Origin: Terriglobia bacterium
Lineage (GTDB): Bacteria; Acidobacteriota; Terriglobia; 20CM-2-55-15
Assembly: GCA_963664115.2 (NCBI GenBank)
Contig: CAXWPJ010000012.1
Span: 384,001-448,000 of the forward strand
Reading direction: 5' to 3'
Length of the DNA: 64,000 nt
In this document: one piece after another, positions 18,426 to 55,497 of the stretch
How positions within the stretch are numbered: position 1 is the stretch's first letter
How the letters are laid out: each line of letters begins with the position of its first letter
Translations under genes and position numbers: made by a program
The notes under the pieces: model-generated
Told to the model about the DNA's origin: nothing
The model's input: only the letters and a program-made list of their open reading frames with translations
Databases searched by the model: none

Positions 18426-18484
18426 CTACGGCACCGGCAACCGCGTTCTTTCAGTTCGTCAAACTCGTTCTTCAGAACGACGTC
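18426..18484 (-). pseudogene. Ser/Thr kinase-PD40 C-terminal tail remnant
   Basis: DVVLKNEFDELKER, frameshift, then LPVP*. Confidence 0.65.
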
Positions 18485-18634
18485 CCATCAGTCTGGTATT
18501 TGACAAGATACGCGTCGGGCTGGTCGGCCCGATAACGAAAAACCGACAGTTCTTCTCAGTTCATTACGGAAACTTCTGTGCGCGGGTATTATTTTCTGGC
18601 ACTATTGCGCGAGGTGAGAACCTTGGGAGGACAC

Positions 18635-19255
18635 GTGGCTTGGCTTAACAGACTCATTCCCGTAACAATCATTCTGTGTATTTCGCAGCCTGCTTTCGCG
18701 CAAAGCTGGATGACGCACGTCAGTCTGGAGGATCGCTTCAGCGTCAATCTTCCTGGTGAGCCTGAAGTAGAGGACCTCACCTACCCCTCGGAATATGGGG
18801 CCATATTCCCAGGACGGGTCTATATCTACGAGGATGGCTCAAACCGATATTCCGTCACCGTGATCGATTACACGGACGCGGAAAGAATACACGAGGAACG
18901 AACCAACAAAACCGAAGCCGACAGCCTGCCGATCTACTGGCAGATTGATGTGCGAGCATCTATCGCCTATGCAGCGTGGGGGTTCCGTCAAAGGGACGCC
19001 AAAGTCACCTATGATGCCTGGCACTACATAAACCTCATTGAAGGGCACCAGCTACAGCTTACGAATGCAGATCAATCCCGTACTTTCGCGGCGATTTATC
19101 TGCACGAAAGCCGTCTCTACATCCTGGAGGCCACCGTACCGCAGGGTGCGGCGCCGCCGGGACTGTTTCAGCAATCCCTAACTATCCTCGATGAAGAGGG
19201 CAACAGGGTGCGCTACGATTCGATCTACTCCAACCAGTTACCAACCGGACCCTGA
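18635..19255 (+). CDS. Secreted hypothetical protein
   Basis: GGAGG RBS before GTG, signal peptide AFAQ; directly upstream of a DUF6152-like gene. Confidence 0.75.
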   Translation: MAWLNRLIPVTIILCISQPAFAQSWMTHVSLEDRFSVNLPGEPEVEDLTYPSEYGAIFPGRVYIYEDGSNRYSVTVIDYTDAERIHEERTNKTEADSLPIYWQIDVRASIAYAAWGFRQRDAKVTYDAWHYINLIEGHQLQLTNADQSRTFAAIYLHESRLYILEATVPQGAAPPGLFQQSLTILDEEGNRVRYDSIYSNQLPTGP

Positions 19256-19273
19256 TGACGAGGAGGAAACGAT

Positions 19274-19645
19274 ATGCAGTACAAATCGTTAGGTCTTGCT
19301 GCCCTGTGTGTGGTTTTCCTGGCCGTACCGGCTCGGGCACACCATTCACACGGCAACTACCAGATGACGGAGTACACGATCTTAAACGGAATAGTGAAGG
19401 AAATTCACTGGATCACGCCGCATAGTTGGATCTACCTCGAAGTCATCGACGACGATGGTGAGCCCACAACGTGGGCGCTTGAAGGCGCCGGCGTGACTCA
19501 GCTCAGAAGGCTCGGATGGACAGAAGACAGCGTCAAAGTGGACGATCCCATCTCCGTGCGCTGCCACCAGCTCAGAGACGGCTCCAATGGCTGTCTTCTG
19601 GGATTTGTGACGCCGGAAGGCGGCGTCGAGAAAATGTTCGACTAG
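19274..19645 (+). CDS. DUF6152-like secreted protein
   Basis: ARA|HHSHG, WITPHSW, WALEG. Confidence 0.87.
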   Translation: MQYKSLGLAALCVVFLAVPARAHHSHGNYQMTEYTILNGIVKEIHWITPHSWIYLEVIDDDGEPTTWALEGAGVTQLRRLGWTEDSVKVDDPISVRCHQLRDGSNGCLLGFVTPEGGVEKMFD

Positions 19646-19684
19646 AATGATCGGCTAGGATGACCGGGGCGCCCTGCCTGACTC

Positions 19685-19729
19685 CTTTGCCTTCACATCT
19701 TCAAACGAATTCCGGACGATGTGTATCTG
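19685..19729 (-). pseudogene. Kinase-PD40 C-terminal tail remnant
   Basis: QIHIVRNSFEDVKAK just downstream of the NHL gene stop. Confidence 0.55.
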
Positions 19730-19773
19730 GGATGGTGGCAGTATCGCCCTCGGTTACAGTCGCTTCCGCTTGA

Positions 19774-20793
19774 CTATTTCTTGACGTATTTCCGCAAGGC
19801 CATCCCGCCAGTGAGTGACGCATAGATGTTGCCATCGGCGTCCACGACGACGCCTTCCTGAGATCCGTCGGGATCGGGGTCGTCTATGAACGTGATAACC
19901 TCACCGTTTTCCACGCTGCCAATCCGAATACCTTCCTTCCACGGTGTGTTCCTCTCGTCGTCTGAACTTGAATCGGCAACGTAGAGGATATCGTTGCTGT
20001 CGATGTAAATGCCGCTCGGCCGTCCGAACTGTGGCCACTCGTCCAGAAAAGTCCCGTTCTGATCAAAAATCTGCACGCGCTCGTTTCCACGGTCGCCGAC
20101 GAAAAGCCGACCCCGGGAGTCCATGGCGAGCGTGTGCGGCGTCTCAAACTCTCCGGGTGCTGTTCCCTTAGTTCCCCAGGTCTTGATAAACTGGCCGTTC
20201 TTCGAGAACTTCACGATCCGGGCCGATTCCCCGCCGTGGCCATCCCCAACGAAGATGTCGCCGTTGGGCGCGACGAAGACCGCGGACGGCTGATTGAACT
20301 CATCCGGACCATTCCCTGCTACTCCAGCCTTGCCGAGCGTCATCAGAAGCTGGCCATCCGGACTGAACTTGAACACCTGGTGGCCCTTGCCGTTTCGCCT
20401 CGGGTCGATGCCGTCCGGTCCTTCATGGTCGGTCACCCACACGTTGCCTTCGGCGTCGATGTGGATGCCGTGAGGACGCACGAACATGTCCGCGCCAAAA
20501 CTCTTCATCAGGGTTCCGGAAGGATCAAACTTCAAGATAGGTGGCAGGTCAGAGCCGACGCAGTCATTCTGGCCACAACGCTCGAACAGCCAGATGCTGC
20601 GACCGTCCCCATCGAGAGCCATCGCAACCGTGGAGCCAATCGTCCGCCCCTCGCCTAGCTTGAAGAAACTCTGATTCATAGAATAGGGATCGGGCCGGGC
20701 ATTGATCTCTTCGTTGATTTGCCCGGAAGCCCCTTGGCCGGACGCGACAAACGCGCCCACCAAGACCCAGCTCACGAACTTCCCCTGCCACAT
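19774..20793 (-). CDS. NHL-repeat PAL-like (peptidyl-alpha-hydroxyglycine lyase family) protein
   Basis: RPHGIHIDAEGNVWVTD, HQVFKFSPDG, FETPHTLAMD, VGDRGNERVQIF. Confidence 0.88.
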   Translation of the reverse strand: MWQGKFVSWVLVGAFVASGQGASGQINEEINARPDPYSMNQSFFKLGEGRTIGSTVAMALDGDGRSIWLFERCGQNDCVGSDLPPILKFDPSGTLMKSFGADMFVRPHGIHIDAEGNVWVTDHEGPDGIDPRRNGKGHQVFKFSPDGQLLMTLGKAGVAGNGPDEFNQPSAVFVAPNGDIFVGDGHGGESARIVKFSKNGQFIKTWGTKGTAPGEFETPHTLAMDSRGRLFVGDRGNERVQIFDQNGTFLDEWPQFGRPSGIYIDSNDILYVADSSSDDERNTPWKEGIRIGSVENGEVITFIDDPDPDGSQEGVVVDADGNIYASLTGGMALRKYVKK

Positions 20794-20819
20794 AGCAACC
20801 CCCTTCTGATTACTGCCTT

Positions 20820-20887
20820 TTGAAATGAGGCGGAAAAACTGGTTGAAGGATATTCGACGAGGGATTCAGAAGCAATCAAACTCTCGA
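20820..20887 (-). promoter_or_regulatory. Conserved kinase-type promoter/leader copy
   Basis: TTGCTT-17-TATCCT; -10 plus leader is 26/33 nt identical to that before the truncated kinase at 46942. Confidence 0.7.
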
Positions 20888-21109: not shown

Positions 21110-21568
21110 ATGACCATTTCAATGAATCGCTTTGTCGTGTGCATAGCGGCCGTGGGAGTTTTGTTGCTGGCCGGTTTGAACGCGGCGACATTCGCGCATC
21201 ACGGAGGGTTTGTCAATTGGCAGCAGGAAAGTTTGATCGGCCCGGTCACCTTTGTAGCCACGAGTTTTGCGTTTCGTTTTCCGCATCCCCAGATATCCGG
21301 TGAGATCAGGGACGAGACCGGACAGGTCAGGCCATGGGTCATTGCACTGCGTCAGACGCCCACCGGTTTACGGGCTCAAGGCTGGAATCGGACTTCTATC
21401 AAGTCTGGAGACACCCTCGATTTGACCTATAGCCCGCATGTATCCGCAGAGAACGTCGGTATAGCCCGCCGCGTGGTCGTCAACGGAGAATTTCTCCCCA
21501 TCGAACCGGGTGATGAGGAATGCCGCACGACGACGACGCCCTACCGCCGCTGCGGAGACGTGCAATGA
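21110..21568 (+). CDS. DUF6152-like secreted protein (divergent)
   Basis: TFA|HHG, FPHP, W, IKSGD. Confidence 0.75.
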   Translation: MTISMNRFVVCIAAVGVLLLAGLNAATFAHHGGFVNWQQESLIGPVTFVATSFAFRFPHPQISGEIRDETGQVRPWVIALRQTPTGLRAQGWNRTSIKSGDTLDLTYSPHVSAENVGIARRVVVNGEFLPIEPGDEECRTTTTPYRRCGDVQ

Positions 21569-26191: not shown

Positions 26192-26225
26192 CTAGGTGCT
26201 AAACGCTCATACGAAACGACGGACC

Positions 26226-28811
26226 ATGATCGGAAAGAAGCTCGCGCACTACGAAGTCACCGGCAAGCTTGGAGAGGGCGCCATGGGCGCCGTCTATCGC
26301 GCCCGGGACTTGCGACTCCACCGGGATGTCGCATTGAAGGTCCTGCCTGAGTCCTTCAGCAAAGATCCGCACCGCATGGTGCGGTTCGAGCGGGAAGCCC
26401 AGGTGTTGGCCTCCATCAACCATCCCAACGTCGCGGCGATCTACGGTCTGGAAGAATCCGGAGGCGTTCGATGTCTCGTGCTGGAGCTGATCGAGGGTCC
26501 GACTTTACGAGAGCACCTCGATAGAAATTCTCTGTCTTTCAGGCAAGCGATTGACATGGCACTGCAAATCGCCCGTGCTCTGGAAGCGACGCACGCAAAG
26601 GGAATCACACATCGCGACCTGAACCCCGCCAATATCAAAATTCTCGAAAACGGAATAATAAAGGTTCTGGATTTCGGCCTGGCCAAAGTGTTCATGGACG
26701 ACGAGAAGACCTCCCCCCTGTCGACCAAAGCGGGTGTGCTGCTGGGAACGCCTGCATATATGAGTCCGGAGCAGGTACGGGGCGGTGCGGTCGACAGCCG
26801 CGCGGACATCTGGGCCTTTGGGTGTGTCCTATTCGAGATGCTCGCCGGGGAGCACGCGTTTCTCAAGAGCACGGTACCGGATACCTTGACCACAGTTCTG
26901 GATCGGGAGCCCGAGTGGGGGAAGCTGCTTCAAAGCACGCCGCCCGCTCTTAGGCGACTACTCGGTCGATGCCTTGCTAAGGAACCCCAACATCGGCTGC
27001 GTCATATTGGCGATGCCATCCTGGAGCTGGAAGAAGCGACTGAAGAAGCCGGTCGCACAGCGTCGGCCAGCATCCCCGTCTCGCAGGGTCGTTGGAGATC
27101 AGCCGCAGCAGTCGGTCTGCTCGGCCTGGTGGTCGGCCTCATGGTGGGCATTCGTGTGTGGGACACCACGCCCGCTGAATTCAGTCTCATTCGCCAGCAG
27201 ATACAGATTACTGACGAGCCCGCCGTTGAAACCTGGCCCAGCCTCTCCCCCGATGGCCAGAACCTGGTGTATGCGGGCAACGGCTCCGGCAATTGGGATA
27301 TTTACTTCAGGCGCGTCGATGGACAGACGGCCATCAACCTGACCGAAAACTTCGAAGGTGATGACCATCAGCCCGCGCTCTCGCCCGATGGCGGACGGAT
27401 CGCGTTCCAATCCAATCGTGACGGCTTGGAAGGCATCTTTGTCATGGGAGCCACAGGGGAATCGATTCGGCGGTTGACGGACTTCGGAGCAAACCCCGCC
27501 TGGTCGCCCGACGGAACGGAAATCGTGTTTGCGACGCTGGAAGTCGAAAGCGACCCCACCACTCGCGGCGGCCTTGACGGAGAGCTCTGGGTCGTCAACG
27601 TGGAAAGTGAGGGTACTCGCCAGCTTGCGACAGCGGGCCGGGACGCAACACAACCCAGTTGGTCACCGAATGGATATCGAATCGCATTCTGGGGTCTGGA
27701 CAGGAAACGCGGCTCCGGGCAGCGAGATATCTGGACAATTCCAGCCGAGGGGGGTGAACCCACTGCGGTCACCGAGGACGTTTATACCGACTGGAACCCC
27801 GTCTGGTCACCCGATGGTCAATACCTCTATTTCTCAAGCGACCGCGCCGGTGGAATGAATCTTTGGCGCGTCCGGATCGACGAACGCACCGGAATTCCGA
27901 CGGGCCAACCGGAACAGATAACCACCGGTGGCTTTTCCCAACAGTTACACCTGACCTTGGCCGGCTCCCAACTGGCCTACGCCGAGCGTCGATCCCGTAC
28001 CAACATTTACGCAGTGGATTTCGATCCCGAAACCGGGCGGGTCGTCGGTGAACCCCAGGCCATCACTCGAGGTTCCCGCGTTGTTGACCACCCCGACGTT
28101 TCCAGAGATGGCCAATGGTTGACGTACATGATCCGAGGCGCGCGGGAGTCCATCATGGCAAGCAGGACGGACGGAAGCGACCTGCGTCGGCTCACGAATG
28201 ATGCGTTCAAGAATAGGGGTCCGCGATGGACTCAGGATGGTACACAGATCGCCTTCTATTCGGATCGAAGCGGTAGCTATGGAATTTGGGTGATGGATCC
28301 CGACGGAAGCGGCCAGACACAAATCACGAACAATCCGGAAACTCCGATAGTCAACCCCGTCTGGTCACCCGACGGTGCAAGGCTGGTTTACGCGTACAAC
28401 GATGTTACTTATGTCGTCGAAGGCCCGGATTGGAGCGAACAGACGCCCACCCGGGTCATGGAGTCGCGGCCGGCCGATTGGTCTCCAGATGGGCGCAGAC
28501 TGGCCAATTCATCCACCCTCACGAACCCGTGGCCGCTTCGGATTCACTCCTTCGATACGGGCGAAACCCTGGAGGTCTCGACTCTCCCGAGCTTCGGCGG
28601 CCGCTGGCTGGACGATCGCAGGCTCGTTTTCGCTTCCGACGGCGAAATCCGATTGATCGACGTTGACTCCGGCCTGTCCCAGCGATTGTTGGACGGCCCC
28701 CGGGGCGAGACCATCAACGTCGCTGGATTTTCACCCGACCGGAGAACGCTCTATGTTCTGCTGAGCGCCGAACCGGAGTCCGACATCTGGCTCATGACTC
28801 TGGGCCCCTAG
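26226..28811 (+). CDS. Hanks-type Ser/Thr protein kinase with TM helix and TolB/PD40 propeller
   Basis: GEGAMG, VALK, HRDLNPAN, DFGLAK, YMSPEQ, DIWAFG; TM segment; repeated P.WSPDG. Confidence 0.95.
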   Translation: MIGKKLAHYEVTGKLGEGAMGAVYRARDLRLHRDVALKVLPESFSKDPHRMVRFEREAQVLASINHPNVAAIYGLEESGGVRCLVLELIEGPTLREHLDRNSLSFRQAIDMALQIARALEATHAKGITHRDLNPANIKILENGIIKVLDFGLAKVFMDDEKTSPLSTKAGVLLGTPAYMSPEQVRGGAVDSRADIWAFGCVLFEMLAGEHAFLKSTVPDTLTTVLDREPEWGKLLQSTPPALRRLLGRCLAKEPQHRLRHIGDAILELEEATEEAGRTASASIPVSQGRWRSAAAVGLLGLVVGLMVGIRVWDTTPAEFSLIRQQIQITDEPAVETWPSLSPDGQNLVYAGNGSGNWDIYFRRVDGQTAINLTENFEGDDHQPALSPDGGRIAFQSNRDGLEGIFVMGATGESIRRLTDFGANPAWSPDGTEIVFATLEVESDPTTRGGLDGELWVVNVESEGTRQLATAGRDATQPSWSPNGYRIAFWGLDRKRGSGQRDIWTIPAEGGEPTAVTEDVYTDWNPVWSPDGQYLYFSSDRAGGMNLWRVRIDERTGIPTGQPEQITTGGFSQQLHLTLAGSQLAYAERRSRTNIYAVDFDPETGRVVGEPQAITRGSRVVDHPDVSRDGQWLTYMIRGARESIMASRTDGSDLRRLTNDAFKNRGPRWTQDGTQIAFYSDRSGSYGIWVMDPDGSGQTQITNNPETPIVNPVWSPDGARLVYAYNDVTYVVEGPDWSEQTPTRVMESRPADWSPDGRRLANSSTLTNPWPLRIHSFDTGETLEVSTLPSFGGRWLDDRRLVFASDGEIRLIDVDSGLSQRLLDGPRGETINVAGFSPDRRTLYVLLSAEPESDIWLMTLGP

Positions 28812-32508: not shown

Positions 32509-32775
32509 CGCACCCCTCCCAGCCAGCACAGGCTGCCACGTTGATCCAGTTTGATTCACGTTGATCAAGGACAGGCCCGCCTCTCTTGCGCCTGGCCTTG
32601 GCCAATCCCCTCACTGGTCATATCTAGAAATGTTCGAGCTGTGTCGGAGCACTGACGTCCATTGCGACTGCTCGCGCTCTTCGAACAGCTGGGGGCAGTC
32701 TATAGAAACGGTGGGCGGAGAGGCAACGAATTCTCGAGCAAACATCCGCCTATTTCCTGGGATCTGCGGCTCCAA

Positions 32776-32865
32776 TCATGGCACCGGCACCCGTTCCTTG
32801 AGGATTTGAAAAGACGAATCGTCGGCAGCGTGGAGCCATAATGACCAATAATATTGACTTGATCC
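32776..32865 (-). pseudogene. Kinase-PD40 C-terminal tail remnant
   Basis: DQVNII... then FQILKERVPVP* in another frame. Confidence 0.65.
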
Positions 32866-33523: not shown

Positions 33524-33576
33524 CCAGGGCACCGGCATCCGCTTTTCAATTCATCAAGCGAGTTCAGGACGATGTT
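33524..33576 (-). pseudogene. Kinase-PD40 C-terminal tail remnant
   Basis: NIVLNSLDELK, frameshift, then RMPVP, downstream of the MBL gene. Confidence 0.62.
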
Positions 33577-33634
33577 GCGGTGTGGGATGAGAAGAACCGT
33601 TTAAATTCCGCAAAACGATATAGGCGGACAAGCA

Positions 33635-36083: not shown

Positions 36084-36464
36084 TCAGTGCTCATGCGACG
36101 ATGTCTTCGACTCAATGCGCCCCACTAACGCTTGGATCGCTTTCGTTTCGTCCTCAAACGTATCGAAGACTTTCGAGAGTTTTGTTAGTTCAAGAAGTTT
36201 TTTCACTTTCTTGGACGGGTTCAACAGACCAAGTTTGCTGTCGCCATTCCGTAGTGAATTATGGACACTGAAAATGGCTCCGAGCCCGGCACTGTTGATG
36301 TAAGAAACCTCGCTGAGATTGAGGAGCAATTTCACCGCGCCTTCCTCAAGAACAGGATTCACCGTCGCTCTGAACAGCCGTATTGAGTCCGCGTGAGATA
36401 ATTCACCCGACACGTCAACAATAACCACGCCGCTGATTCTTCGCGTATTCACCGACAGCGCCAT
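36084..36464 (-). CDS. STAS-domain anti-sigma factor antagonist
   Basis: LLNLSEVSYINSAGLG, LLELTKL; AAAGGAGG RBS. Confidence 0.9.
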   Translation of the reverse strand: MALSVNTRRISGVVIVDVSGELSHADSIRLFRATVNPVLEEGAVKLLLNLSEVSYINSAGLGAIFSVHNSLRNGDSKLGLLNPSKKVKKLLELTKLSKVFDTFEDETKAIQALVGRIESKTSSHEH

Positions 36465-36492
36465 AAATGCCTCCTTTCATTATTGCCGCCCC

Positions 36493-36564
36493 CACTTCTC
36501 CCGTTCCACATTTACGACGGAGTGTGCCAATCGCGCAGCGACCGGGAGTGGCACCTGAATCCAT
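36493..36564 (-). pseudogene. Kinase N-terminal (Gly-loop) remnant
   Basis: MDSGATPGRCAIGTLRRKCGTGEV aligns without gaps (11/24) to MESGTKLGHYEVLSLRGKGGMGEV at 46942. Confidence 0.65.
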
Positions 36565-36605
36565 CGTTAAATTGCGTTGCGACAAGAACCGGGAAATCTT
36601 GCTAA

Positions 36606-36646
36606 AGAATATTAAAGGCAGAAGTTAGAAGCTATCAAATTCTCAA
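36606..36646 (-). promoter_or_regulatory. Conserved kinase-type promoter copy
   Basis: TTGAGAATTTGA-TAGCTT-17-TATTCT. Confidence 0.7.
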
Positions 36647-41563: not shown

Positions 41564-41635
41564 GAACTTTCCTTTCCTGACGTTTCCTGTGGACATACTG
41601 CTGTGCAGCCAATCGAGCCGCTCCAAACTCGCTAA

Positions 41636-41678
41636 ACATTACTAAAGGTAGAAGTTCGAAGCAAACAAACTCTCAACT
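41636..41678 (-). promoter_or_regulatory. Conserved kinase-type promoter copy
   Basis: GTTGAGAGTTTGT-TTGCTT-17-TAATGT; leader shares TTTA.CGAGTTT...CTGCACA with the 46942 copy. Confidence 0.7.
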
Positions 41679-43849: not shown

Positions 43850-44007
43850 AGCAGCTCCTTCGGGAATCTTTGGCAGCAATTCTAGCACTGCCGGCGACCA
43901 AGTCTGATCGAGACTTTTGAGGCCGTCCCGTCTTGTGAAGTCGAAACCGGTGTGAGATTCCAGTTCCAACTTCCAACGCTGGGCCAACAAAATCGAAATT
44001 ACAGTTG

Positions 44008-44041
44008 TCAACGTCCGACAAGATGATTTCGCAGGACTTGA
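44008..44041. repeat. 34-bp bulged palindrome, copy A
   Basis: TCAACGTCCGACAAGATGATTTCGCAGGACTTGA, identical to 47021-47054. Confidence 0.9.
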
Positions 44042-44049
44042 ACTTGAAA

Positions 44050-44121
44050 TTATGGCGCCGGCACCCGTTCCTTAAGTTTTTCAAACGAGGTGTGAACAAC
44101 GACGATCTGTTGCTGTTCAGA
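44050..44121 (-). pseudogene. Kinase-PD40 C-terminal tail remnant
   Basis: SEQQQIVVVHTSFEKLKERVPAP*. Confidence 0.72.
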
Positions 44122-44177
44122 TGAGTTCGGCGACCAAGAATCAACTTCGACGTGAGAAAGGCTCTGACGGGCTACAC

Positions 44178-45239
44178 TCAGTCGTTGCCGGCCGTCAACA
44201 GGTTATACGCCGCCTCGACGTTGCGGTCGCGTTGCGGGACGTAGTTGGGAAGATCGCCGTAGTCGCCGAGCGCGTCGCTCGCCAACAGGTCTTCCAGCGA
44301 CGTTTCCGACTCCACCGCGCCGGTGATGGCGGCCTGGAGATCCTCGAAGAACTCCCGGTATGCGGTGAAGTCCGCTTTCGTGCCGACACTGCTGTGGCCG
44401 GGTGAAACAATATCGAAGTCCAGTGCTTCGACTCGCTGGAGTGAGTCGATCCACTGTGACAGCGTCCCGGTGCCGGGGAACCCCAGAGCGAGCCGCTTGA
44501 CGTTGATGAAATCCACCCCGTAGATCACTCGCTCCTCGGGAAACAGGAGCACCGTCGCGTCGATGGAATGGTTCGGTCCGGGATGGATGAGCTCCACGGT
44601 CTTGCCGCCCAGCGTGATCGTCAGGCGCTCGGAGTAGAGCATCTCCGGCCCCAGCACGTCCGCCAGTATCTCCCCCGCATCGAGATAGCCGTCGGCATTG
44701 GTGTCGAACGCATCGAAGTAGGGCGCCAGGTCGCCGCTGGCTTCGTTTCTATCGAGCCGCTGATCGCCGTCGGCATCGACCAGCGTCACTTGGACGGGAA
44801 AGCCGGCTATCGCATCCTCGAGCGCGATGGGCAGGTTCGCGTGCCCCACAAAGGTCGCCGTTTCGTCGAATACCCGGCCGCCGGAGGCATGATCCCAGTG
44901 ATAATGGCTGTAGAGCACGTAGCGCACGGGCACCCCGAACCGCTGTGCCAGTTCACCCTCCAGCCAGGTTGCGAAGTCGGCGTTGAGCGGGTCGGCAAGG
45001 ATGATCCCCTCGGCGGTGACGAGGAACACCGTGAAATGGGTGCCGTCCTGTGCACGGTAGAGATCCCCGGCGATCGGCACGATCTCCCGGGCAGGCTCCT
45101 CGCTCTGGGCTTGACCCGCCGGCGGCGGCGCGTCACCGGTGGAGAGGTCGGCCGGCTGATCGCTCCCTTGCTGCGAGCACGCGGCAAGGAATAGCAGCAG
45201 ACCCACGAGTAGCATCGGTGCGGCATATCTCATCATCAT
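44178..45239 (-). CDS. MBL-fold hydrolase lipoprotein with EF-hand pair insert
   Basis: Lipobox LAAC, SHYHWDH, PNHS, SPGH; DADGDQRLDRNE and DTNADGYLDAGE. Confidence 0.87.
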   Translation of the reverse strand: MMMRYAAPMLLVGLLLFLAACSQQGSDQPADLSTGDAPPPAGQAQSEEPAREIVPIAGDLYRAQDGTHFTVFLVTAEGIILADPLNADFATWLEGELAQRFGVPVRYVLYSHYHWDHASGGRVFDETATFVGHANLPIALEDAIAGFPVQVTLVDADGDQRLDRNEASGDLAPYFDAFDTNADGYLDAGEILADVLGPEMLYSERLTITLGGKTVELIHPGPNHSIDATVLLFPEERVIYGVDFINVKRLALGFPGTGTLSQWIDSLQRVEALDFDIVSPGHSSVGTKADFTAYREFFEDLQAAITGAVESETSLEDLLASDALGDYGDLPNYVPQRDRNVEAAYNLLTAGND

Positions 45240-45510
45240 TAACTATCCCCGGCAACGTGCCGATCTGATCGGTGATCTGGCATGGACCTAGACGTGTATC
45301 CGCCTCGATGGACGCGCAACTCCTCTAAACGAGCTCGCACGTAAAACTCACAGAACTATATAGAGCGCGCGGGATGGGGGTCAAAGGAAAAGTGTTGCTC
45401 ACCACTCCACCAACGTCTTCTCCTCAACCTCCCGAAAGCACTTCGGGCGCTTCGCGGGCTCCGGGGGCAGGCCACGTCGAATTAATAGCAGGGTTCAGGT
45501 ATTACAGTTC

Positions 45511-45544
45511 TCAACGTCCGAGAAGATGATTTGTCGGGACTTGA
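45511..45544. repeat. 34-bp bulged palindrome, copy C
   Basis: TCAACGTCCGAGAAGATGATTTGTCGGGACTTGA. Confidence 0.85.
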
Positions 45545-45587
45545 ACCGTCATCTGCCTCCCTTAACTTCCCCGAAGCCGACTTCTCG

Positions 45588-45968: not shown

Positions 45969-46706
45969 ATGCGACGTTCAGTGACGGTAAACACAACGAT
46001 TGGATTGATTGCGGTATTCGGTATGTTCGGGATGCTTTCCGGCGCCTTGGCCCAGGAGACCCCGGCGCAGATGGTGGCCCCGCTGTTCCTGAAAGTGGAT
46101 TGGGTGCGGCCGGCTAGCCAGGAAGACACCTCCCTCCGCTACACGCCGGTTCAGGAAAACATCGCCGATCCGAACGTGGAGATCCACTATTACGGGCCGG
46201 GAGCCAAGCAGATCCTGACCACGGGCAATCCGGAGAGCGACGTTCGGCCCTACGGCGTGTGGACGGGGACGGCCGAAGGTCCCTTTGCCATCACCTTCGG
46301 GATGAAGAACGGCAACTATGTCGATCTCACCGGCCTGGCCAACGTCCGGTGGTTCACGAAGACTTCGGGTTTCCATGTCGTGCGTCCCGTCGTAAAGCTG
46401 GCCGACGGCACCCTGCTGGTCGGCGACCGGACTTTCTCTTCGGTGCCTAAGCTCACCCTAAGCGAGTTCTCCCTGACCGATATTCGCTGGATCAAGCTGG
46501 AGCCGGAGCGCATGGTCACGGTCAACAGCGGCCGGTCCCCGACGAACGAAGTCTGGGCCCCCAATCCGGACCTCACCCGCGTCGCGGAAGTCGGCTTCGC
46601 CGACCTGTATCCCGGCAGCGGCCACGGAACCGGCGGGTATATCCACCTCGCCGGGATCGAGGTCTACGGCAAGACCGTGCCGCGAGGGGCGAGGAGCAGC
46701 CGTTAG
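45969..46706 (+). CDS. Secreted hypothetical protein, paralogue of 28955-29653
   Basis: RPVVKLADGTLLVGD, DLTRVAEVGF..GSGHG. Confidence 0.8.
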   Translation: MRRSVTVNTTIGLIAVFGMFGMLSGALAQETPAQMVAPLFLKVDWVRPASQEDTSLRYTPVQENIADPNVEIHYYGPGAKQILTTGNPESDVRPYGVWTGTAEGPFAITFGMKNGNYVDLTGLANVRWFTKTSGFHVVRPVVKLADGTLLVGDRTFSSVPKLTLSEFSLTDIRWIKLEPERMVTVNSGRSPTNEVWAPNPDLTRVAEVGFADLYPGSGHGTGGYIHLAGIEVYGKTVPRGARSSR

Positions 46707-46762
46707 GCTTTTTCTCGAAGCGGTCTTGGGCGATCCAAGAACGGTCGCGCCCACCGAGTGCC

Positions 46763-46942
46763 CTTGGCTTCACGTTCAAACCGTGCGAGGCGATCTGCAT
46801 CCTTCGCAAACTCTTCGGGCAGAGTCTTGATAGCAATTTCACGCCCGAGTTTCGTGCCACGCGCACGCCACACTTCCCCCATTCCGCCCTTACCCCGGAG
46901 GCTCAGGACTTCGTAGTGACCAAGTTTGGTGCCTGATTCCAT
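46763..46942 (-). pseudogene. Truncated Ser/Thr kinase (first ~60 aa only)
   Basis: MESGTKLGHYEVLSLRGKGGMGEVWRAR..IAIKTLPEEFAKDADRLARFEREAK, then homology stops. Confidence 0.9.
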
Positions 46943-46983
46943 GATCTAGTGTGCAGTTGAAATGACCGAGAAAAACTCGGTAA

Positions 46984-47012
46984 AGGATACTAAAGCAGGA
47001 AGTTAGGCGCTA
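46984..47012 (-). promoter_or_regulatory. Promoter of the truncated kinase (prototype of the repeated promoter)
   Basis: TAGCGC-17-TATCCT. Confidence 0.65.
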
Positions 47013-47020
47013 TCAAATCC

Positions 47021-47054
47021 TCAACGTCCGACAAGATGATTTCGCAGGACTTGA
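47021..47054. repeat. 34-bp bulged palindrome, copy B
   Basis: Identical to copy A; lies between a kinase tail and a kinase promoter. Confidence 0.9.
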
Positions 47055-47072
47055 GAATGGATTTCGAAGGTT

Positions 47073-47138
47073 CTACGGGACTGGCTCCTGTTGCTTCAGT
47101 TCTTCAAACCAGTTCCCGACGACGTTGATTTGGAGTGG
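47073..47138 (-). pseudogene. Kinase-PD40 C-terminal tail remnant
   Basis: PLQINVVGNWFEELKQQEPVP*. Confidence 0.82.
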
Positions 47139-47192
47139 CAGCGGTTCTCTGGGTCCTCCGGTTTCGGTGCGAGATGATTTTCCTTTAGACTT

Positions 47193-48053
47193 TTACTCTG
47201 GTGGCTCGACCACAGGACGAATAATGTTCCCGTTCTCATCTTGATATACCGCTTGTTCCAGGCCGGACCCGCCGATGGTGGGCTGAAGGTGCTCGACGTC
47301 CCTTTCGTAGTCCATGCAGGCATGAGACATAATCCGGTCCGGAGCCGTCACGCGCTGAAGCGTCTGCATTGTCGTAAACGGCTTCACGAAAAACACGGGA
47401 TCGGTATGCGTCACCGTGTACTCGATCGTGTTTGGGTCGGCCAGGTGAAATCGTTCGGTGAGATGCAGCTGGTCACTGTGTTCGTGACCGGAAATGTCCA
47501 GCCACGTTCGGTCATTGATGCTCACTGTGTCCACAACCAGCGTGTCTCCCTCCCACTTGCCGAGCGCGTGCCCCGTCCATTCCGGATAGTCATGAATGTA
47601 TTCGGGATGATCCCGCCCATCCGTATAGATCAGGCGGAAGGTGTACTGAGATTCGCTGAGGATTACGAGCACGTCAGGGCGCTGAACAAACATGGTGGGA
47701 TGGCTACGGATGACCATCCTGGACGGACCCGGGGGGAGGCAGAATGTATTGGGATCCTGAGCGTGGTCGACGGTCTGATATCTTTCGTATCCATATGCGG
47801 TGAGAATCATTTCATCACCCGGCACAGTGACCTGGGAGAGGTCCCTGGCAGTCCGTCCAGTCCAAACACCGCTGAGGTCCACGGGTCCGATATCCACGGG
47901 TCCAGATGGAGAGTCTTCTCCCAAATACCACCAGGCACCCTCCAACCCAGATCCGGGCGCACTCAATTGCGCCTGGGCAGGGATCACCACGAGGATTAAA
48001 GCGCAGAACTGTGCCCACGCGGCAAAAGTTAAAACCGAAAAACGCTTGCTCAT
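47193..48053 (-). CDS. Secreted hypothetical protein, DUF6152-partner family
   Basis: DPNTFCLPPG, RLIYTDGRDHP, GHALGKWEGDTLVVDT, HSDQLHLTER. Confidence 0.85.
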   Translation of the reverse strand: MSKRFSVLTFAAWAQFCALILVVIPAQAQLSAPGSGLEGAWWYLGEDSPSGPVDIGPVDLSGVWTGRTARDLSQVTVPGDEMILTAYGYERYQTVDHAQDPNTFCLPPGPSRMVIRSHPTMFVQRPDVLVILSESQYTFRLIYTDGRDHPEYIHDYPEWTGHALGKWEGDTLVVDTVSINDRTWLDISGHEHSDQLHLTERFHLADPNTIEYTVTHTDPVFFVKPFTTMQTLQRVTAPDRIMSHACMDYERDVEHLQPTIGGSGLEQAVYQDENGNIIRPVVEPPE

Positions 48054-48231
48054 GCTGAGCCTCCATATCGAATCACGATTCTGCTTCGAGGGATCCAGAC
48101 CGGGATTCGACTCGCCTAACATCTGATTTTAATTCGTGCTGTCCAATGCAAACGCTGCCGCACGTCGCCATCGCCCAAAGTCTCTGACGGTGACGCTGTC
48201 GGGAGCGACCTTGGCTCCTGAATAGTTGTCT

Positions 48232-48663
48232 CTAGTTGTTGCCTCTAGGCCCGGTAGGTCCTCTATCGTTGGCCGAACCTCCGTACACCCGACGACCATC
48301 GGGCATCGTCACGTTCCGCCCGTTGATGAGGTTCGACCCGTCTCTGGCTCGGAAGCCCTCCACTCTGACGCTATCTCCAATCTTCAGATCGTCTTTGCGC
48401 CAGCCTCTCCTGAACAGATTGTTCGGCGTGCCACCCTCGATGGCCCAATTCTCCACCGCGCCGCTTTCGTCTTCTACATCCACGAACAAGTAGATGTGCG
48501 GATTCCTCCACTGCACTTCCGTGATTTGGCCTTCTACCGTAATGGGCGCATTCGAATCGTATTGGGCCGCGAACGAATGGTGTGCCTCGAGGGAGAGTCC
48601 TCCCAGGAACAGGGCCACACCCACGGCGAATGCACCCGACCACGCTGGTTTCGTTAGCTTCAT
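48232..48663 (-). CDS. DUF6152-like secreted protein
   Basis: LEA|HHSFAAQYD, WRNPHIY, WAIEG, LKIGD. Confidence 0.9.
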   Translation of the reverse strand: MKLTKPAWSGAFAVGVALFLGGLSLEAHHSFAAQYDSNAPITVEGQITEVQWRNPHIYLFVDVEDESGAVENWAIEGGTPNNLFRRGWRKDDLKIGDSVRVEGFRARDGSNLINGRNVTMPDGRRVYGGSANDRGPTGPRGNN

Positions 48664-48830
48664 CGAGCCCTCCAGACTGAAATCCGTTTTGGGGTTGCTG
48701 CGCTTCCTCGACTGAGATGCCCGCTAGATCTAACTACAGGTGGGATGTGTAAGCAAGAAAAGTCTCAAGAGAAAAGTCTCAAGAGCATTAGGAGAAAATA
48801 AGAGCCCTCCCCCCGATAATGATTGGGGAA

Positions 48831-48993
48831 ACAGCGCCGACTCCAACGTCAGATCCAGCGGTAGCCGTCCTTTCTCTAACCCAGCCGTCAGAGTGTCCCT
48901 TTCGACACATTCCATGACGACGTAGTGTGTGGGGTCCTGTTCGCCAACATCGTGAAGGGTGCAGATATCAGGATGGTTCAGGCTGCTTAGAGC
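48831..48993 (-). pseudogene. Internal Ser/Thr kinase fragment (subdomains IV-VIa)
   Basis: LSSLNHPDICTLHDVGEQDPTHYVVMECVERDTLTAGLEKGRLPLDLTL. Confidence 0.85.
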
Positions 48994-49256
48994 GGTGGTT
49001 CACGGCAACGGAGTTGGTAGAGGTGTGGGGCCGCTGGCCGTCCGGCGAGACATCACTGTGGAAATCCAGGCGAGGTCGTGACATCGTGGGGTCTGAAGAA
49101 CCGCATCGCAAGTTCTCGTTTCGCTGTGCCAGCTTAAACGCGGCTGACGTTTCGGAACGTGTAGTTCGTGCGGCAACCCTATGAGCGCTGCGGGGAGCGC
49201 GATACCCCGTGGATCAAAAACAGAACGTGCGTTTAATGGAAAAGGTGAGCATTGCG

Positions 49257-50330
49257 ATGTCTATTTCACGATTAGCGAGACCTTGGTTTGGGGCAACAAT
49301 AGTCATTGGGATTGCACTGCTGGGAGGCCGCGTCTACACGCAGGATGTTCAGCCCGTAAACAGTGGCGCGAATCCGTATCGCACCATTCGAAATTGGGGC
49401 ATGTTACCGGAGGAAAGACCGTGGGGGGCCGCGAACGGCGTCGACATCGACCCCGACGGTCAGTCCGTCTGGGTGGCCGACCGATGCGGAACACGCGAGG
49501 GCTGTGTCGGGTCCCAAGTGGACCCGATTCAGAAGTTCGACGAGTCAGGAAACCTGCTCGCGAGCTTCGGCGGAGGCATGTTCGTGTGGCCGCATGGTCT
49601 CCACGTCGACCAGGATGGAAATGTGTGGGTGGCTGACTCGCGACGCCCGACCGCAGAAGAGCTCCAGACGTTTCCCGGAGAAAAAGACAAGGGCAGCGTG
49701 GTGGTCAAGTTCAGCCCGGAGGGCGAGGTCCTCATGACGCTGGGGCAGTTCGGCGTGGCCGGCAGTCCGCCCGATGCCTTGACCGACCCGATCGACGTTG
49801 TGACCGCTCCAAACGGCGACATTTACGTGACCGAGAGCCATACCAGGGGCCAGGACCCGGACGTCGTCGGACGCATCTCGGTGTTCGACAGCACCGGGCA
49901 GTTCATCAAAACCATCGGGAAATTGGGGACCGGGCCGGGCGAGTTCCGAAGACCCCACGGCATCGTGTTCGACTCGCTTGGCCGCCTGATCGTTGCCGAC
50001 CGGCAGAACCACCGCATCCAGATCCTGGACACGGACGGAAATTATATTGGTGAATACCGAGAGTTCGGCCGCGTGAGTGGGCTGACCATCGATCAGGACG
50101 ACACGATTTATACGAGCGACTCCGAATCAAACGCGAGCAATCACCCAGGCTGGCGCAGGGGGATCCGGATCGGGAGCCTCAAAGACGGCAAAGTGACGAT
50201 GTTCATTCCTGGCCACGAAACGGATTCCCCCGAAGGCGCTGCCGGGGAAGGAATCGCGCTCGACGCCGCCGGCAATCTGTACACTGCAGAAGCAACAGTG
50301 ACGGGAGTGACAAAGTACGTCAGGGATTAG
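49257..50330 (+). CDS. NHL-repeat PAL-like protein, paralogue of 19774-20793
   Basis: VWVADRCG..CVGS, WPHGLHVD, VADRQNHRIQI, GIRIGS. Confidence 0.88.
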   Translation: MSISRLARPWFGATIVIGIALLGGRVYTQDVQPVNSGANPYRTIRNWGMLPEERPWGAANGVDIDPDGQSVWVADRCGTREGCVGSQVDPIQKFDESGNLLASFGGGMFVWPHGLHVDQDGNVWVADSRRPTAEELQTFPGEKDKGSVVVKFSPEGEVLMTLGQFGVAGSPPDALTDPIDVVTAPNGDIYVTESHTRGQDPDVVGRISVFDSTGQFIKTIGKLGTGPGEFRRPHGIVFDSLGRLIVADRQNHRIQILDTDGNYIGEYREFGRVSGLTIDQDDTIYTSDSESNASNHPGWRRGIRIGSLKDGKVTMFIPGHETDSPEGAAGEGIALDAAGNLYTAEATVTGVTKYVRD

Positions 50331-50430
50331 AGGCCATTCGTGAGGCACTGGGCCAACGATGTGTCGGATTAGAACTGAGGTCGTTGGGGAAGGTCTAGCA
50401 AGAAGGGTAGATAGCAAGGCAACGAAATTC

Positions 50431-50464
50431 TCGAGATCCGAGAAGATGATTCATCGGGACTTGA
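50431..50464. repeat. 34-bp bulged palindrome, copy D
   Basis: TCGAGATCCGAGAAGATGATTCATCGGGACTTGA. Confidence 0.8.
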
Positions 50465-50473
50465 CCTTGAAAA

Positions 50474-50527
50474 TCAGGACACCGGGACCCGTTCCTTCAG
50501 TTCTTCAAACCAGTTCAGGACGGTGTT
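50474..50527 (-). pseudogene. Kinase-PD40 C-terminal tail remnant
   Basis: NTVLNWFEELKERVPVS*. Confidence 0.82.
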
Positions 50528-51117
50528 CCCCGCCGTTCACTGTCACGAAACCACCGGTGATCTTGCCCGTCTCAGCCTTGGCAGCGCCGGCATCAACAGG
50601 GGATAGAGGCGCGTCGACGTCACCAGGCCTCCCATGATTACGACTGCCATGGGTTTTCGGTTTCATAGCCCCGAGCAGTGCCCGCCATTGCGATAGGCGA
50701 AGGCGCCAGAGCGGTCATCAATGCGGTCATCAGAATGGAGGCCAAACGTTCCTGGGCTCCTCAAACGGGCAACTCCGTCCCGGGCATCTAAGTCGAGTTT
50801 CGCCTGGAAGGGCGCTTGGCAGCGGTTTGTGACTGATTCTGGAGATGGGCGTAGTTCATTGATCCGTTTAGCCGCCACAGGCTTTCTCTCAGATTGAGAG
50901 TTACGACCGTCTGCCCGAAGAGCCCTGGCGCGGGACGGCTGTGGGGGGCGACAAGTTCGACGATCGATTAAATTGACTTGAGGGTGAGCCGGGATATAAT
51001 TTCGCCCGCGGGCACGACCGAGCCACGGTCGAGCAACGTTCAGCGCGACAGCGTCTCCAAACAAACACCTAGACACGCCATGCTTCAACTGGCAGACCAG
51101 TCACGAGGGTCAAACTA

Positions 51118-52962: not shown

Positions 52963-52972
52963 GGAGGCTGGA

Positions 52973-53398: not shown

Positions 53399-53608
53399 AG
53401 TATGTCCCCGCGATTCGGTCCGTTGCCGGTCCAACTTCCGATCAAAAATGGCCAAACGAACGGCTCTTTCTCTATTTTTGAAATTCTCAACGTCAAGAAG
53501 ATGGCCACTTTCGACCGATCCAGGCACGGACCACAAGTCCCCCTGATATCAGTCAGACTTATATTCGCCACCCACACCCGCCCGTGCTATCTTCGTCCGC
53601 CGACACGA

Positions 53609-53637
53609 TTGACAAACACTTCTGCGAAAACTAGACT
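53609..53637 (+). promoter_or_regulatory. sigma70-type promoter of the DUF6152/partner operon (copy 2)
   Basis: TTGACA-17-TAGACT. Confidence 0.75.
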
Positions 53638-53730
53638 TTGCTCCAAGCAAGGCGCAGCATGCCCCCGTCCTCTCACAGGTGGGGCTATCTTATAAAATCT
53701 CTGTTCCGCTGTTGCTCAGGAGGATTTCAC

Positions 53731-54108
53731 ATGTTCCGGACTCTACAAATTGTTTTATTTTGCTTCTGTTTCGCGGCCGTGGCCGTGGCGCACCACTCCA
53801 CGACTGCCGTATACGACGCGGACGAGCCGGCCATAATGCTGGAGGGAACCGTGACGCAGGTGGAATGGCGGAACCCGCACATATGGTTCTACATCGATGT
53901 CGTTGGTGACGAGGGTAACGTCACGAACTGGGGCGTGGAATTCCAGACCCCTCCCGCGAGAATGTTCAGGAGAGGCTGGACGCAGGAATCGTTGCAGGTT
54001 GGCGACGTGGTCAAGGTGGAAGGTTCTCCCCCGAGAAACCGCGAGCTCATCCGCGTCTTGAGCCGGACGACGATCCTGCCCGACGGCAGAGAACTGGGCG
54101 GCAGATGA
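53731..54108 (+). CDS. DUF6152-like secreted protein, close paralogue of 16957-17340
   Basis: AVA|HHSTTAVY, WRNPHIW, ILPDGRELG. Confidence 0.9.
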   Translation: MFRTLQIVLFCFCFAAVAVAHHSTTAVYDADEPAIMLEGTVTQVEWRNPHIWFYIDVVGDEGNVTNWGVEFQTPPARMFRRGWTQESLQVGDVVKVEGSPPRNRELIRVLSRTTILPDGRELGGR

Positions 54109-54206
54109 AGAACGAATCCAGCGCGATAGTCCCGGTCAAGCCGGGAGAACGTTAAAGAAGTTTGATGGGGTCACTGCACCCGCACGATTCCACAAGAGGT
54201 ATTGAC

Positions 54207-54971
54207 ATGAGGAGTGGCATTCAGTTTTCATTTTGTTTCGTGATTCTAGTCAGCGCCGTCATGCTTTCCCCCGTCCCCACCGCCGCCCAATCGGATTGGG
54301 ATCCGCGGGATTTCGGGGGCATTTGGCGCGCCGGCACAAGAGACATCACGGTGGCGTTGCAGCCCGGCGAGGAGATCGCATTCACACGCTATGGCGCCGA
54401 GCAGCACCGGGCCTTCGATCTCAAGGACTATTCCACCAAGGGATGCCTGCACAAGGGGCTCACCCGGCAGTTGCTCTCGAACGCTCTTTCGATGTTCGCT
54501 TACGATGACGATCTCGAAATTATGATGTTCCTGCACGAGGACCACTACCGCTGGCGGGCAATCTACATGGACGGCCGGGAGCATCCGCGGGAGGCGCCCG
54601 ATTTTCCGGAGCCGGCCGGACATTCGATCGGCCACTGGGAGGGCGACACCCTGGTTGTGGACTCGGTCGGTTTCCGCGACAGCACCTATCTGGACACCGA
54701 CGGGCTGGGGCACAGCACCGAGCTGCATCTCATCGAAAGGTACACCCGGACGGGACCGGACACGATCGATTGGGTGGTGAGGGTCGAGGATCCGACGTTT
54801 TTCCTCCATCCGTTTACCTTTCAAACGGAGTTCACCCGGCAGCCTCCCAATATCCGGCTGATGTATTATGATTGCGACTACGAACAGGACATCGAACATT
54901 TGGAGTCGTGGATCCGAGGCGAGGAAGGTGAAATTCACACCAATCCTGATGTTTTCGTGTTCCCTGAGTGA
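54207..54971 (+). CDS. DUF6152-partner protein, close paralogue of 17429-18205
   Basis: GHSIGHWEGDTLVVDS; same VFVFPE end. Confidence 0.85.
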   Translation: MRSGIQFSFCFVILVSAVMLSPVPTAAQSDWDPRDFGGIWRAGTRDITVALQPGEEIAFTRYGAEQHRAFDLKDYSTKGCLHKGLTRQLLSNALSMFAYDDDLEIMMFLHEDHYRWRAIYMDGREHPREAPDFPEPAGHSIGHWEGDTLVVDSVGFRDSTYLDTDGLGHSTELHLIERYTRTGPDTIDWVVRVEDPTFFLHPFTFQTEFTRQPPNIRLMYYDCDYEQDIEHLESWIRGEEGEIHTNPDVFVFPE

Positions 54972-55110
54972 GGTGAGACAGAAGGAAGTTCCCAGTCGAA
55001 ACCTTGGTGTGTTTGTTGGGAGAATCCCGGTTTCGTTTCCGCGATGCCGGGATTTGATCAGCTGAGTCGGGACCGGTTTTGAGCCCGCCGAATCAGAAGA
55101 CCTCTACGCA

Positions 55111-55293
55111 GGCATTGTCGAATTAAATCCGCGGGAATCACATTGCCAGGACGCAGAAGCGCCGCCCCCCCCCCCCCCCCCCCACGTTAGGCATCGCTTT
55201 CCATCCGAGATCATCAGCCATGCAGTCTGGCTGTATTAGCGGTTCAACCTGAGCCTCAACAACGTGGAGGACATGCTCGCCGGACGTGGCGTG
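55111..55293 (+). mobile_element. IS6-family remnant: left-IR-like end plus 5' transposase fragment with an in-frame stop
   Basis: GGCATTGTCGAATTAA at 55111; RHRFPSEIISHAVWLY*RFNLSLNNVEDMLAGRGV. Confidence 0.8.
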
Positions 55294-55497
55294 CGAGAGC
55301 AGGCCTCTCGACCTGTTCCATCACCAGGGCGTTGACTCCGGTCGCTGTTTTCACAGCCAAGGTCTGCTCCTGCACCCGGGGTCACTGCAATACAGAAAGG
55401 TGCCTTGGCTGGGGCTTTCTTCTGCTCAGTGCGTCGATGTAGCTTCGCCAGAGTGCCATGGCTCACGCACCACCTTCAGGGTCTTCACCGCCACCGT
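55293..55497 (-). pseudogene. Degenerate kinase N-lobe remnant
   Basis: VAVKTL ... GVNALVMEQVERPALA (compare GVRCLVLELIEGPTLR in the intact kinase). Confidence 0.6.

Follow-up and report, generated by a model that had tools for sequence, protein, structure and literature searches.

Co-oriented ends of Ser/Thr kinase-PD40 genes alternate with unrelated cargo genes in a Terriglobia genome

Among the closest described systems are the orphan arrays of type VI secretion system (T6SS) and Rhs loci in Vibrio, whose origin Kirchberger et al. (2017, PMC5361080) ascribe to recombination, either homologous or illegitimate and homology-facilitated. In these loci, a conserved gene part is the recombination anchor, co-oriented orphan fragments have other genes between them, and modules are exchanged horizontally. 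Here we analyze a 64,000-nt stretch of DNA from a Terriglobia bacterium (GCA_963664115.2, contig CAXWPJ010000012.1, positions 384,001–448,000 of the forward strand; hereafter the window), in which co-oriented end fragments of Ser/Thr kinase-PD40 genes likewise lie between unrelated genes. Two elements recur. The tail is ~107 nt long and comprises the last 19 codons of a kinase-PD40 gene (with the motif NWFEELK), the stop codon, and a ~45-nt hairpin; the head is ~280 nt long and comprises the promoter, the 5' untranslated region (5' UTR), and the first ~65 codons of the kinase gene. Unlike in those loci, both gene ends survive here, a sensor kinase instead of a toxin forms the scaffold and has cargo unrelated to it, and there are 22 arrays over 11% of the genome rather than one locus.

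Two further systems are comparable in part. Minimal mobile elements of Neisseria reportedly exchange cassettes without a dedicated recombinase, by way of homologous conserved flanks; there, the flanks are said to be unique to each site, whereas here one repeated family could in principle admit any cassette to any slot. Integrons and clusters of attC sites lacking integron integrases (CALINs) reportedly resemble the present arrays in having co-oriented repeats of ~100 nt that separate accessory cassettes of 0.5–3 kb, in a content that differs between relatives, and in being targeted at the repeat by IS110/IS1111-type elements. In the present arrays, by contrast, the repeat is a gene end without a significant fold and without an adjacent integrase, cargo genes occupy either strand, a promoter is carried or borrowed by many cassettes, and the breakpoints do not fall at one site. 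No paper with the motif NWFEELK was found by full-text search, although the searching was limited and an earlier description elsewhere is possible; searches on the topic gave only general statements about kinase paralogues in Solibacter.

Copies of both elements were located with nhmmer, using a DNA profile of the tail made from 89 genome-wide copies of the NWFEELK-encoding stretch and a second profile covering the promoter region, 5' UTR, and first ~65 codons of the head. The window's own genome (4.89 Mb; G000, with C-numbers for its contigs) holds 212 tails, 119 heads, and about 5 intact kinase-PD40 genes that carry both. Of these elements, 271 of 331 fall within the 22 arrays, which total 536 kb, and within arrays tails and heads are strictly co-oriented: consecutive tails <5 kb apart lie on the same strand in 135 cases and on opposite strands in 3. 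The co-oriented array of kinase ends that an earlier, sequence-only reading had proposed for the window is thus a feature of the whole genome, and the window itself belongs to one of these arrays. Two possible causes of the co-orientation were rejected, namely gene strand, with 191 open reading frames (ORFs; 58%) sharing the strand of the elements versus 136 that do not in uniformly oriented arrays, and replication strand or GC skew, with 127 of the 212 tails (60%) on the locally G-rich strand and a weak skew. The junction sequence is also present in four of four other same-genus genomes searched (the congeners compared include G001, G002, and G004) and in several further genera of the family.

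By its sequence, the tail is a genuine gene end and no look-alike. With the intact C10 kinase of G000 as the query, 5502 proteins matched at E ≤ 1e-5, and in 118 of the best 120 listed a NWFEELK-like motif lies 4–9 residues from the C-terminus, which bears out the earlier view that this tail is typical of the family. Database-precomputed annotation places PF07676 in all of these 120 and PF00069 in most, and many are named acidobacterial kinases by their sources, including some from other Acidobacteria. Minor-allele fractions at codon positions 1, 2, and 3 of 64 full-length tails are 0.083, 0.081, and 0.194; variation is codon-periodic, and most of the divergence of the copies therefore dates from when they were coding. 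Homology to PD40 upstream of the tail is missing in 120 of the 212 copies, and present to some extent in the other 92, among which it is full length in 8. The 3' end of the tail is constant, reaching profile position 103–107 in 153 of 212 copies, and 5' truncation occurs at all possible positions; heads mirror this, with 97 of 119 starting within the first ~20 profile positions and with variable 3' ends. Partial tails also break between stop codon and hairpin (13 copies end at positions 60–61, and 15 start at 68–69). Small-protein genes were rejected as an identity for the tails, the frames upstream of the motif being mostly <100 codons and several <10, with in-frame stops in three copies.

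That the tail is instead an autonomous non-coding mobile repeat, akin to a miniature inverted-repeat transposable element (MITE) or a repetitive extragenic palindromic (REP) sequence, which mimics a coding end and was captured by kinase genes, is highly improbable, and only for the hairpin half does this idea retain any room. Such a repeat would account for tails outnumbering intact genes by about 40:1, for a hairpin-only profile giving 246 matches genome-wide of which 93 lie outside known tails (E < 0.1), and for the REP-like behavior of the hairpin as a target of insertion sequences (IS). It does not fit the closing position of the motif in nearly all of the best homologues listed, other Acidobacteria included, nor the codon periodicity, nor the 92 copies that keep upstream PD40 homology of varying length; the mirror-image pattern of the heads is unexplained by any 3'-end repeat, and a discrete transposed unit such as a MITE is disfavored by how much the inner ends of both elements vary. 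The fragments in the window, too, derive from Ser/Thr kinase-PD40 genes by their sequence and are no chance resemblance.

Where kinase bodies belong, other genes are mostly found. We defined a head-to-tail unit as a head that has a tail downstream on its own strand, no more than 8 kb away, and among the 68 such units genome-wide, 51 enclose non-kinase DNA (median 1955 nt), 7 a kinase body, 6 a mixture, and 4 nothing. These counts support an architecture in which non-kinase cargo has replaced kinase bodies. Units with a single ORF number 20 in which it runs in the direction of the scaffold and 2 in which it runs against it, and the ORF upstream of a tail is co-oriented with it in 134 of 212 cases (63%), versus 47% at random intergenic points. 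The median distance from cargo to tail is 82 nt; since cargo abuts the tails so closely, the kinase bodies would have been removed and not have decayed in place.

In the window, the tail profile gave 8 matches (E 1.8e-5 to 3.6e-30) and the head profile 5, one of them borderline, all on the minus strand. Profile and tblastn searches bore out 10 of the 14 kinase fragments that the sequence-only reading had listed, all on the minus strand, and found 4 further pieces; its tail at ~29915 (E 3.3) and its pieces at ~32600–32662 (no match), ~50735 (no match), and 55293 (tblastn E 0.5 only) went unsupported. The elements and the principal genes among them are as follows, with window-scale nhmmer E-values and with Pfam annotation that covers window ORFs (MBL, metallo-beta-lactamase-fold).

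47017..47131, minus strand: complete tail (19 codons, stop, hairpin), nhmmer E 7.7e-24, profile positions 2–107; starts 62 nt past the stop of a 309-aa partner gene (47193–48122)
46763..47019, minus strand: head with promoter-like site, 5' UTR with a small palindrome, and kinase start to codon ~64, then truncated; nhmmer E 6.7e-76
50427..50527, minus strand: complete orphan tail, nhmmer E 3.6e-30; carried within an NHL cassette block (49162–50525; 93% identity to G002)
44005..44108, minus strand: complete but diverged orphan tail, nhmmer E 6e-22, also tblastn; begins 70 nt past the stop of the MBL gene at 44178
45508..45546, minus strand: hairpin half of a tail only (profile positions 68–106), nhmmer E 7.9e-7; the upstream edge of an MBL block, exactly where homology to G002 begins
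44178..45239, minus strand: cargo MBL gene, from Pfam
33524..33577, minus strand: coding part of a tail only (profile positions 6–60), nhmmer E 1.5e-10; starts 58 nt past the stop of the MBL gene at 33635
32758..32802, minus strand: partial tail (profile positions 34–79), nhmmer E 4.1e-6; upstream of NHL gene 31195–32568, ~190 nt from its start, with a tail at equal relative distance from the matching block in G002
19688..19728, minus strand: degenerate tail (profile positions 2–42), nhmmer E 1.8e-5; starts 46 nt past the stop of the NHL gene at 19774
18418..18483, minus strand: partial tail (profile positions 8–68) with motif NEFDELK, nhmmer E 3.9e-9
36436..36642, minus strand: degenerate head with promoter, 5' UTR, and ~30 decayed kinase codons, nhmmer E 3e-28; runs into the ribosome-binding site and start of STAS gene 36084–36464 (Pfam STAS)
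41602..41672, minus strand: head, promoter/5' UTR part only, nhmmer E 5e-7; separated by ~40 nt from the start of the DUF2272 gene (41563)
48718..48764, minus strand: head, promoter part, nhmmer E 1.6e-5
48832..48990, minus strand: diverged kinase N-lobe fragment (residues ~66–118), tblastn 47% identity over 53 aa, E 5.6e-10
20818..20883, minus strand: borderline head, promoter part, nhmmer E 0.013
26196..28811, plus strand: intact Ser/Thr kinase-PD40 gene, Pfam Pkinase 3.1e-49 and PD40 1.5e-53

One junction is preserved whole. The sequence-only reading had placed it at 47138 to 46763, and it runs from 47131 to 46763 in the order tail, hairpin, promoter match, small palindrome, and kinase start, the promoter match being a sigma-70-like TTGATA-18-TAGTAT at 47016–46987 on the minus strand. 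Its head is 87% identical over 61 aa to intact G000 kinases at 46945–46763 (tblastn), and with the conserved 5' UTR the homology spans 46990–46763. The tails said to lie just past the stops of NHL 19774, MBL 33635, MBL 44178, and partner 47193 do so at distances of 46–70 nt, and the kinase promoters or starts said to precede NHL 20793, STAS 36464, and DUF2272 41563 were recovered as heads that end at or just before these starts, as another does before DUF6152 48663. Two head-to-tail units lie in the window: 20883 to 19688, in which the head at 20883 and the tail at 19728 bracket NHL gene 19774–20793, and 48764 to 47017, in which the head at 48764 and the tail at 47131 bracket a co-oriented DUF6152 gene (48232–48663) and its partner. 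At the STAS and DUF2272 genes, the kinase promoter and 5' UTR lead straight into the ribosome-binding site or start of the cargo, and the head is likely to supply a promoter to co-oriented cargo. The kinase gene at 26196..28811 is the sole intact one in the window and a member of a diverged branch; its match to the head profile is confined to the coding start, and the tail profile found no tail element at its end. As a recurrent kind of array cargo, six DUF6152 genes occur in the window (16957–17340, 19274–19645, 21110–21568, 48232–48663, 53638–54108, and 55517–56077), several of them adjoining a partner gene of ~270–310 aa.

The window was aligned to four congeners, and the comparison between genomes drew on about 100 kb of G002 and G004 sequence. 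Window positions 7.5–15.9 kb are syntenic with G002, G004, and G001 at 78–87% identity (84–87% for G002). From 17 to 57 kb, the window splits into about 20 blocks of 0.5–2.3 kb, each at a different distant place in G002, and seven blocks are 91–98% identical to G002, among them the following.

44146–45546 (MBL): G002 C1:1048870, 96%
45815–46771: G002 C2:4169965, 98%
47164–48771: G002 C2:4450008, 94%
49162–50525 (NHL block): G002 C2:4107958, 93%
53501–54981: G002 C2:2609686, 92%
31190–32546: G002 C2:2005721, 91%

High-identity cassettes that neighbor one another in the window do not do so in G002. Tails within ~500 nt flank four of the seven there, on both sides for the MBL, NHL, and 53.5–55 kb cassettes and on one side for that at 31.2–32.5 kb; of the others, one is accompanied by a tail whose relative orientation is reversed, and two have no tail. 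The MBL block is also 94% identical to a cassette on G004:C16, its surroundings being unrelated in G002 and G004 alike; in G004 a kinase head fragment precedes it instead of the hairpin and the cassette is inverted relative to the array. This rearrangement, next to a backbone that has stayed syntenic, shows cassettes to be mobile relative to one another between congeners, and the greater likeness between species of several cassettes than of the backbone would fit recent exchange.

Duplications within G000 indicate where joins fall. We collected 68 alignments of at least 400 bp and at least 88% identity in low-copy array DNA, with 117 distinct ends, 46 of which lie in elements (41 in tails and 5 in heads); as elements make up 4.8% of array DNA, this is an ~8-fold enrichment. 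Ends inside tails spread over profile positions 21–110 and cluster at the two edges of the hairpin (17 at 56–70 and 8 at 103–110) and within it (11 at 74–97), with exact crossover points blurred by sequence identity among copies. Blocks shared with G002 start at varying tail profile positions, at 68 for MBL and about 8 for NHL, or outside elements. Joins thus favor the elements without being restricted to them, and they do not point to one cut site. The earlier idea that the junction serves as both recombination target and promoter holds to the extent that heads precede cargo and duplication ends are enriched in elements.

These patterns bear on a purely passive origin, in which the arrays are a graveyard of tandem kinase paralogues eroded by random deletion and IS, with the ends as the most conserved remains and without any role in cargo movement. 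We regard this as unlikely. The continuous variation of truncation points agrees with erosion, and so do the richness of the genome in IS (families with 78 and 56 matches of at least 800 bp), its size of 4.9 Mb at the small end of the genus range of 4.6–8.4 Mb, and the codon periodicity showing that tails diverged as gene parts; kinase bodies, moreover, are ~30–45% identical as proteins, so remnants of them would escape detection. Erosion does not readily explain why cargo abuts the tails, with the bodies removed, why window cassettes are scattered in G002 while the backbone is syntenic, why several of them are at 91–98% identity to G002 versus 84–87% for the backbone, why duplication ends are concentrated in elements, or why single cargo genes are co-oriented 20:2.

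The most likely account, which we put at about even chances, is that the kinase ends act as dispersed homology for general recombination, which replaces kinase bodies and swaps, deletes, or imports the genes between them. A hyper-expanded, co-oriented kinase family would have left many copies of two conserved blocks, the head and the tail. A double crossover, whether in head and tail or in a pair of tails, could swap the intervening DNA. A single homologous anchor combined with an illegitimate join could bring in foreign genes, with the kinase cut off at varying points, as in the model put forward for the T6SS and Rhs orphan arrays (PMC5361080). By its flanking ends, a cassette could enter any array at any slot; direct copies that recombine could delete or circularize cassettes, and the circles might re-enter at any copy, by which co-orientation would be preserved. 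Selection would favor cargo co-oriented behind the head promoter, as the ratio of 20:2 may reflect, and the hairpin would attract IS110-family and other IS, whose insertion would add breakage and rearrangement. A scheme of sequential displacement with a master gene at the array head was rejected, as the C12 array at 493–585 kb is without an intact kinase and the intact kinase on C9 and C10 is not at the upstream end.

Several points weigh against general recombination at kinase ends. Of the 117 duplication ends, 71 lie outside elements, and between genomes block ends are mostly 30–450 nt outside the nearest element. Full tails share a pairwise identity of about 78% over ~85 columns, which makes them a poor RecA substrate except for a core of ~30 nt. 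No evidence of within-genome homogenization of tails was found, identity being 0.78 within G000 versus 0.75 to others in a comparison with only 8 G002 and 2 G004 tails. In tail-to-tail units, cargo orientation is 100:94, and with no preference there, much of the pattern could be a by-product and not a system. The ORFs themselves are longest-ORF calls and not gene-finder output. Of the gene-body replacement proposed from the sequence alone, the architecture therefore stands for a subset of slots (the 51 of 68 head-to-tail units); the mechanism of recombination we infer, as no recombination event was observed.

The hairpin is of interest in its own right. Its 13-bp stem has two bulges, 88% of cells are paired among 101 distinct copies, and within the tail only the ~45-nt 3' part forms a stem. 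Covariation is almost nil, the pairs being conserved and hardly varying, which says nothing for or against a selected structure. A search of Rfam with window 43.8–51 kb gave no match at E up to 1. The hairpin half is a short, high-copy, intergenic imperfect palindrome of a REP-like kind. REP sequences are reported to be targets of IS (Tobes & Pareja 2006, PMC1525189; PMC12288879, on ISPpu9; PMC11208160, on the IS110 bridge RNA), and relative to REP sequences and bacterial interspersed mosaic elements (BIMEs), the tail hairpin is similar in being a short high-copy palindrome with two IS110-family insertions in its loop. It differs in being joined to the last codons of one gene family and strictly co-oriented in arrays, and a link to REP-associated tyrosine transposases (RAYTs) is not established: two Y1 transposase genes (PF01797) lie ~2.6 kb apart at C10:490039–490818 and C10:492649–493158, and the one tail near them is a partial copy with hairpin, ~260 nt upstream of the first.

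Several mobile elements are associated with the hairpin. Two IS110-family elements (DEDD transposase and Transposase_20), L017 (G000:C5:47700–49500) and L018 (G000:C11:28800–30700), each occupy a fixed point of the hairpin loop, and their orientations are opposite. Their copies are ~98–100% identical, with 8 and 7 matches of at least 800 bp, respectively, and of the copies listed, 5 of 6 and 5 of 5 had their junctions read; the guide RNAs of both should match the hairpin. An IS30-like element sits in hairpins or about 25 nt beside them. An IS91-like element of 2.48 kb, L020 (G000:C12:33700–36800), encodes a 293-aa tyrosine recombinase along with a Y2 transposase (PF04986 and Zn_Tnp_IS91). The element is present in six full near-identical copies and one cut by a contig end; besides L020, copies lie at C1:92879, C1:106163, C12:156685, C12:486940, and C2:196404, and five of six inspected copies lie ~25 nt from a tail hairpin or a reversed hairpin-like sequence. 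The IS load of the genome is very high in general, with one family of ~1.86 kb (78 matches of at least 800 bp, CTAG-containing flanking words; for example, C9:783528–785403) and one of 1.42 kb (56 matches of at least 800 bp; for example, C11:137507–138928), whose largest ORFs gave no Pfam match.

Such associations raise the question of a site-specific system, in which the hairpin would be the site of an IS110-type bridge recombinase, a RAYT-like Y1 enzyme, the partner recombinase of the IS91-like element, or an integron integrase, and cassettes would be inserted and excised directionally in the manner of an integron. The genome does encode an integron integrase (L012, G000:C9:714608–715549), a 427-aa open frame that matches TIGR02249 at 440 bits versus a cut-off of 265 and is the sole match above it. 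The gene and the window are on different contigs, its distance from the closest tail of C9 is ~190 kb, and searching 20 kb to each side for direct repeats revealed no obvious repeat or attC array. A short tandem array is present at L013:17603–17762 (G000:C9:~733600), where G-runs of 8–10 G alternate with a ACATGACAGCAGCCT-like word. Single-strand DNA folding of the attC kind, computed for three tails on both strands, was no better than for shuffled sequences (z −0.84 to +0.78). Over all arrays the cargo is of mixed orientation (58–63% co-oriented), and kinase promoters lie ahead of many cargo genes. Three features that define integrons are accordingly absent, namely an adjoining integrase, an attC-like fold, and uniformly oriented cargo. 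The breakpoints are scattered as well, and the likeness to an integron that the sequence-only reading had drawn does not hold in its defining features.

On balance we consider site-specific recombination at the hairpin a doubtful explanation. In its favor are the insertions of IS110-family elements in the loop and of IS30-like and IS91-like elements in or near hairpins, the position of 36 of the 41 duplication ends in tails at profile positions 56–110, at hairpin edges or inside, the breaks of partial tails at 60–61 (13 copies) and 68–69 (15 copies), the co-orientation of 135:3 that neither gene strand (58%) nor GC skew (60%) explains, and the presence of an integron integrase and two Y1 transposase genes. 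Opposed to these are the lack of a single cut position, with G002 blocks starting at varying profile positions or outside elements, the unremarkable folding of the tail, the almost complete lack of covariation in the hairpin, and the distance of the integrase from any tail and from any adjoining repeat array. The activity known of IS110 enzymes is the joining of their own ends to a target and not of two targets together, which counts against a site-specific system as well. A dedicated site-specific system is thus not shown by these data.

Array DNA also stands out in assemblies. Multi-kilobase array duplicates at 99.8–99.97% identity occur in G000 (C2:593–5226 and C2:162107–166739; C6:40200–43714 and C11:3994–7507), some of them near contig ends, and these could be either real or assembly artefacts. 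In public data, 20 rows from 9 studies cover parts of the window as assembled contigs, which end at elements, and in contigs from 4 public runs of 3 studies the depth at head and tail bins is 5–40× that of neighboring bins (window 45476–47611 and 50282–50815). Given this raised depth and the contig ends, the repeat family is abundant in those communities and fragments their assemblies. Tail/hairpin joints in public contigs were set aside as evidence, as their sides of 26–35 letters look like cross-matches between repeats, and these contigs yielded no evidence of excised circles or of other cargo orders.

A bolder possibility, which we hold to be speculative and rather unlikely, is that this genus and some related genera have an integron-like cassette system without an integron. 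Kinase ends would then be universal junctions, providing promoter, transcript end, and recombination site at once, and about a tenth of the genome would consist of exchangeable one- or two-gene cassettes traveling between arrays and species, and a recombinase that is guided or structure-specific might act at the hairpin. If recombination at kinase ends operates as proposed, accessory cassettes would be built and exchanged on a large scale with nothing more than general recombination and a repeated gene family. This organization would extend to about 11% of the genome and would be common to several genera of hard-to-culture bacteria that are abundant in soil. It would account for the poor assembly of such loci from metagenomes, with contigs breaking at elements, and would explain why DUF6152 proteins, NHL propellers, and MBL-fold hydrolases recur in many contexts. 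The arrays would then offer a natural test bed for homology-facilitated gene capture, and the hairpin a ready natural target set for IS110-type recombinases.

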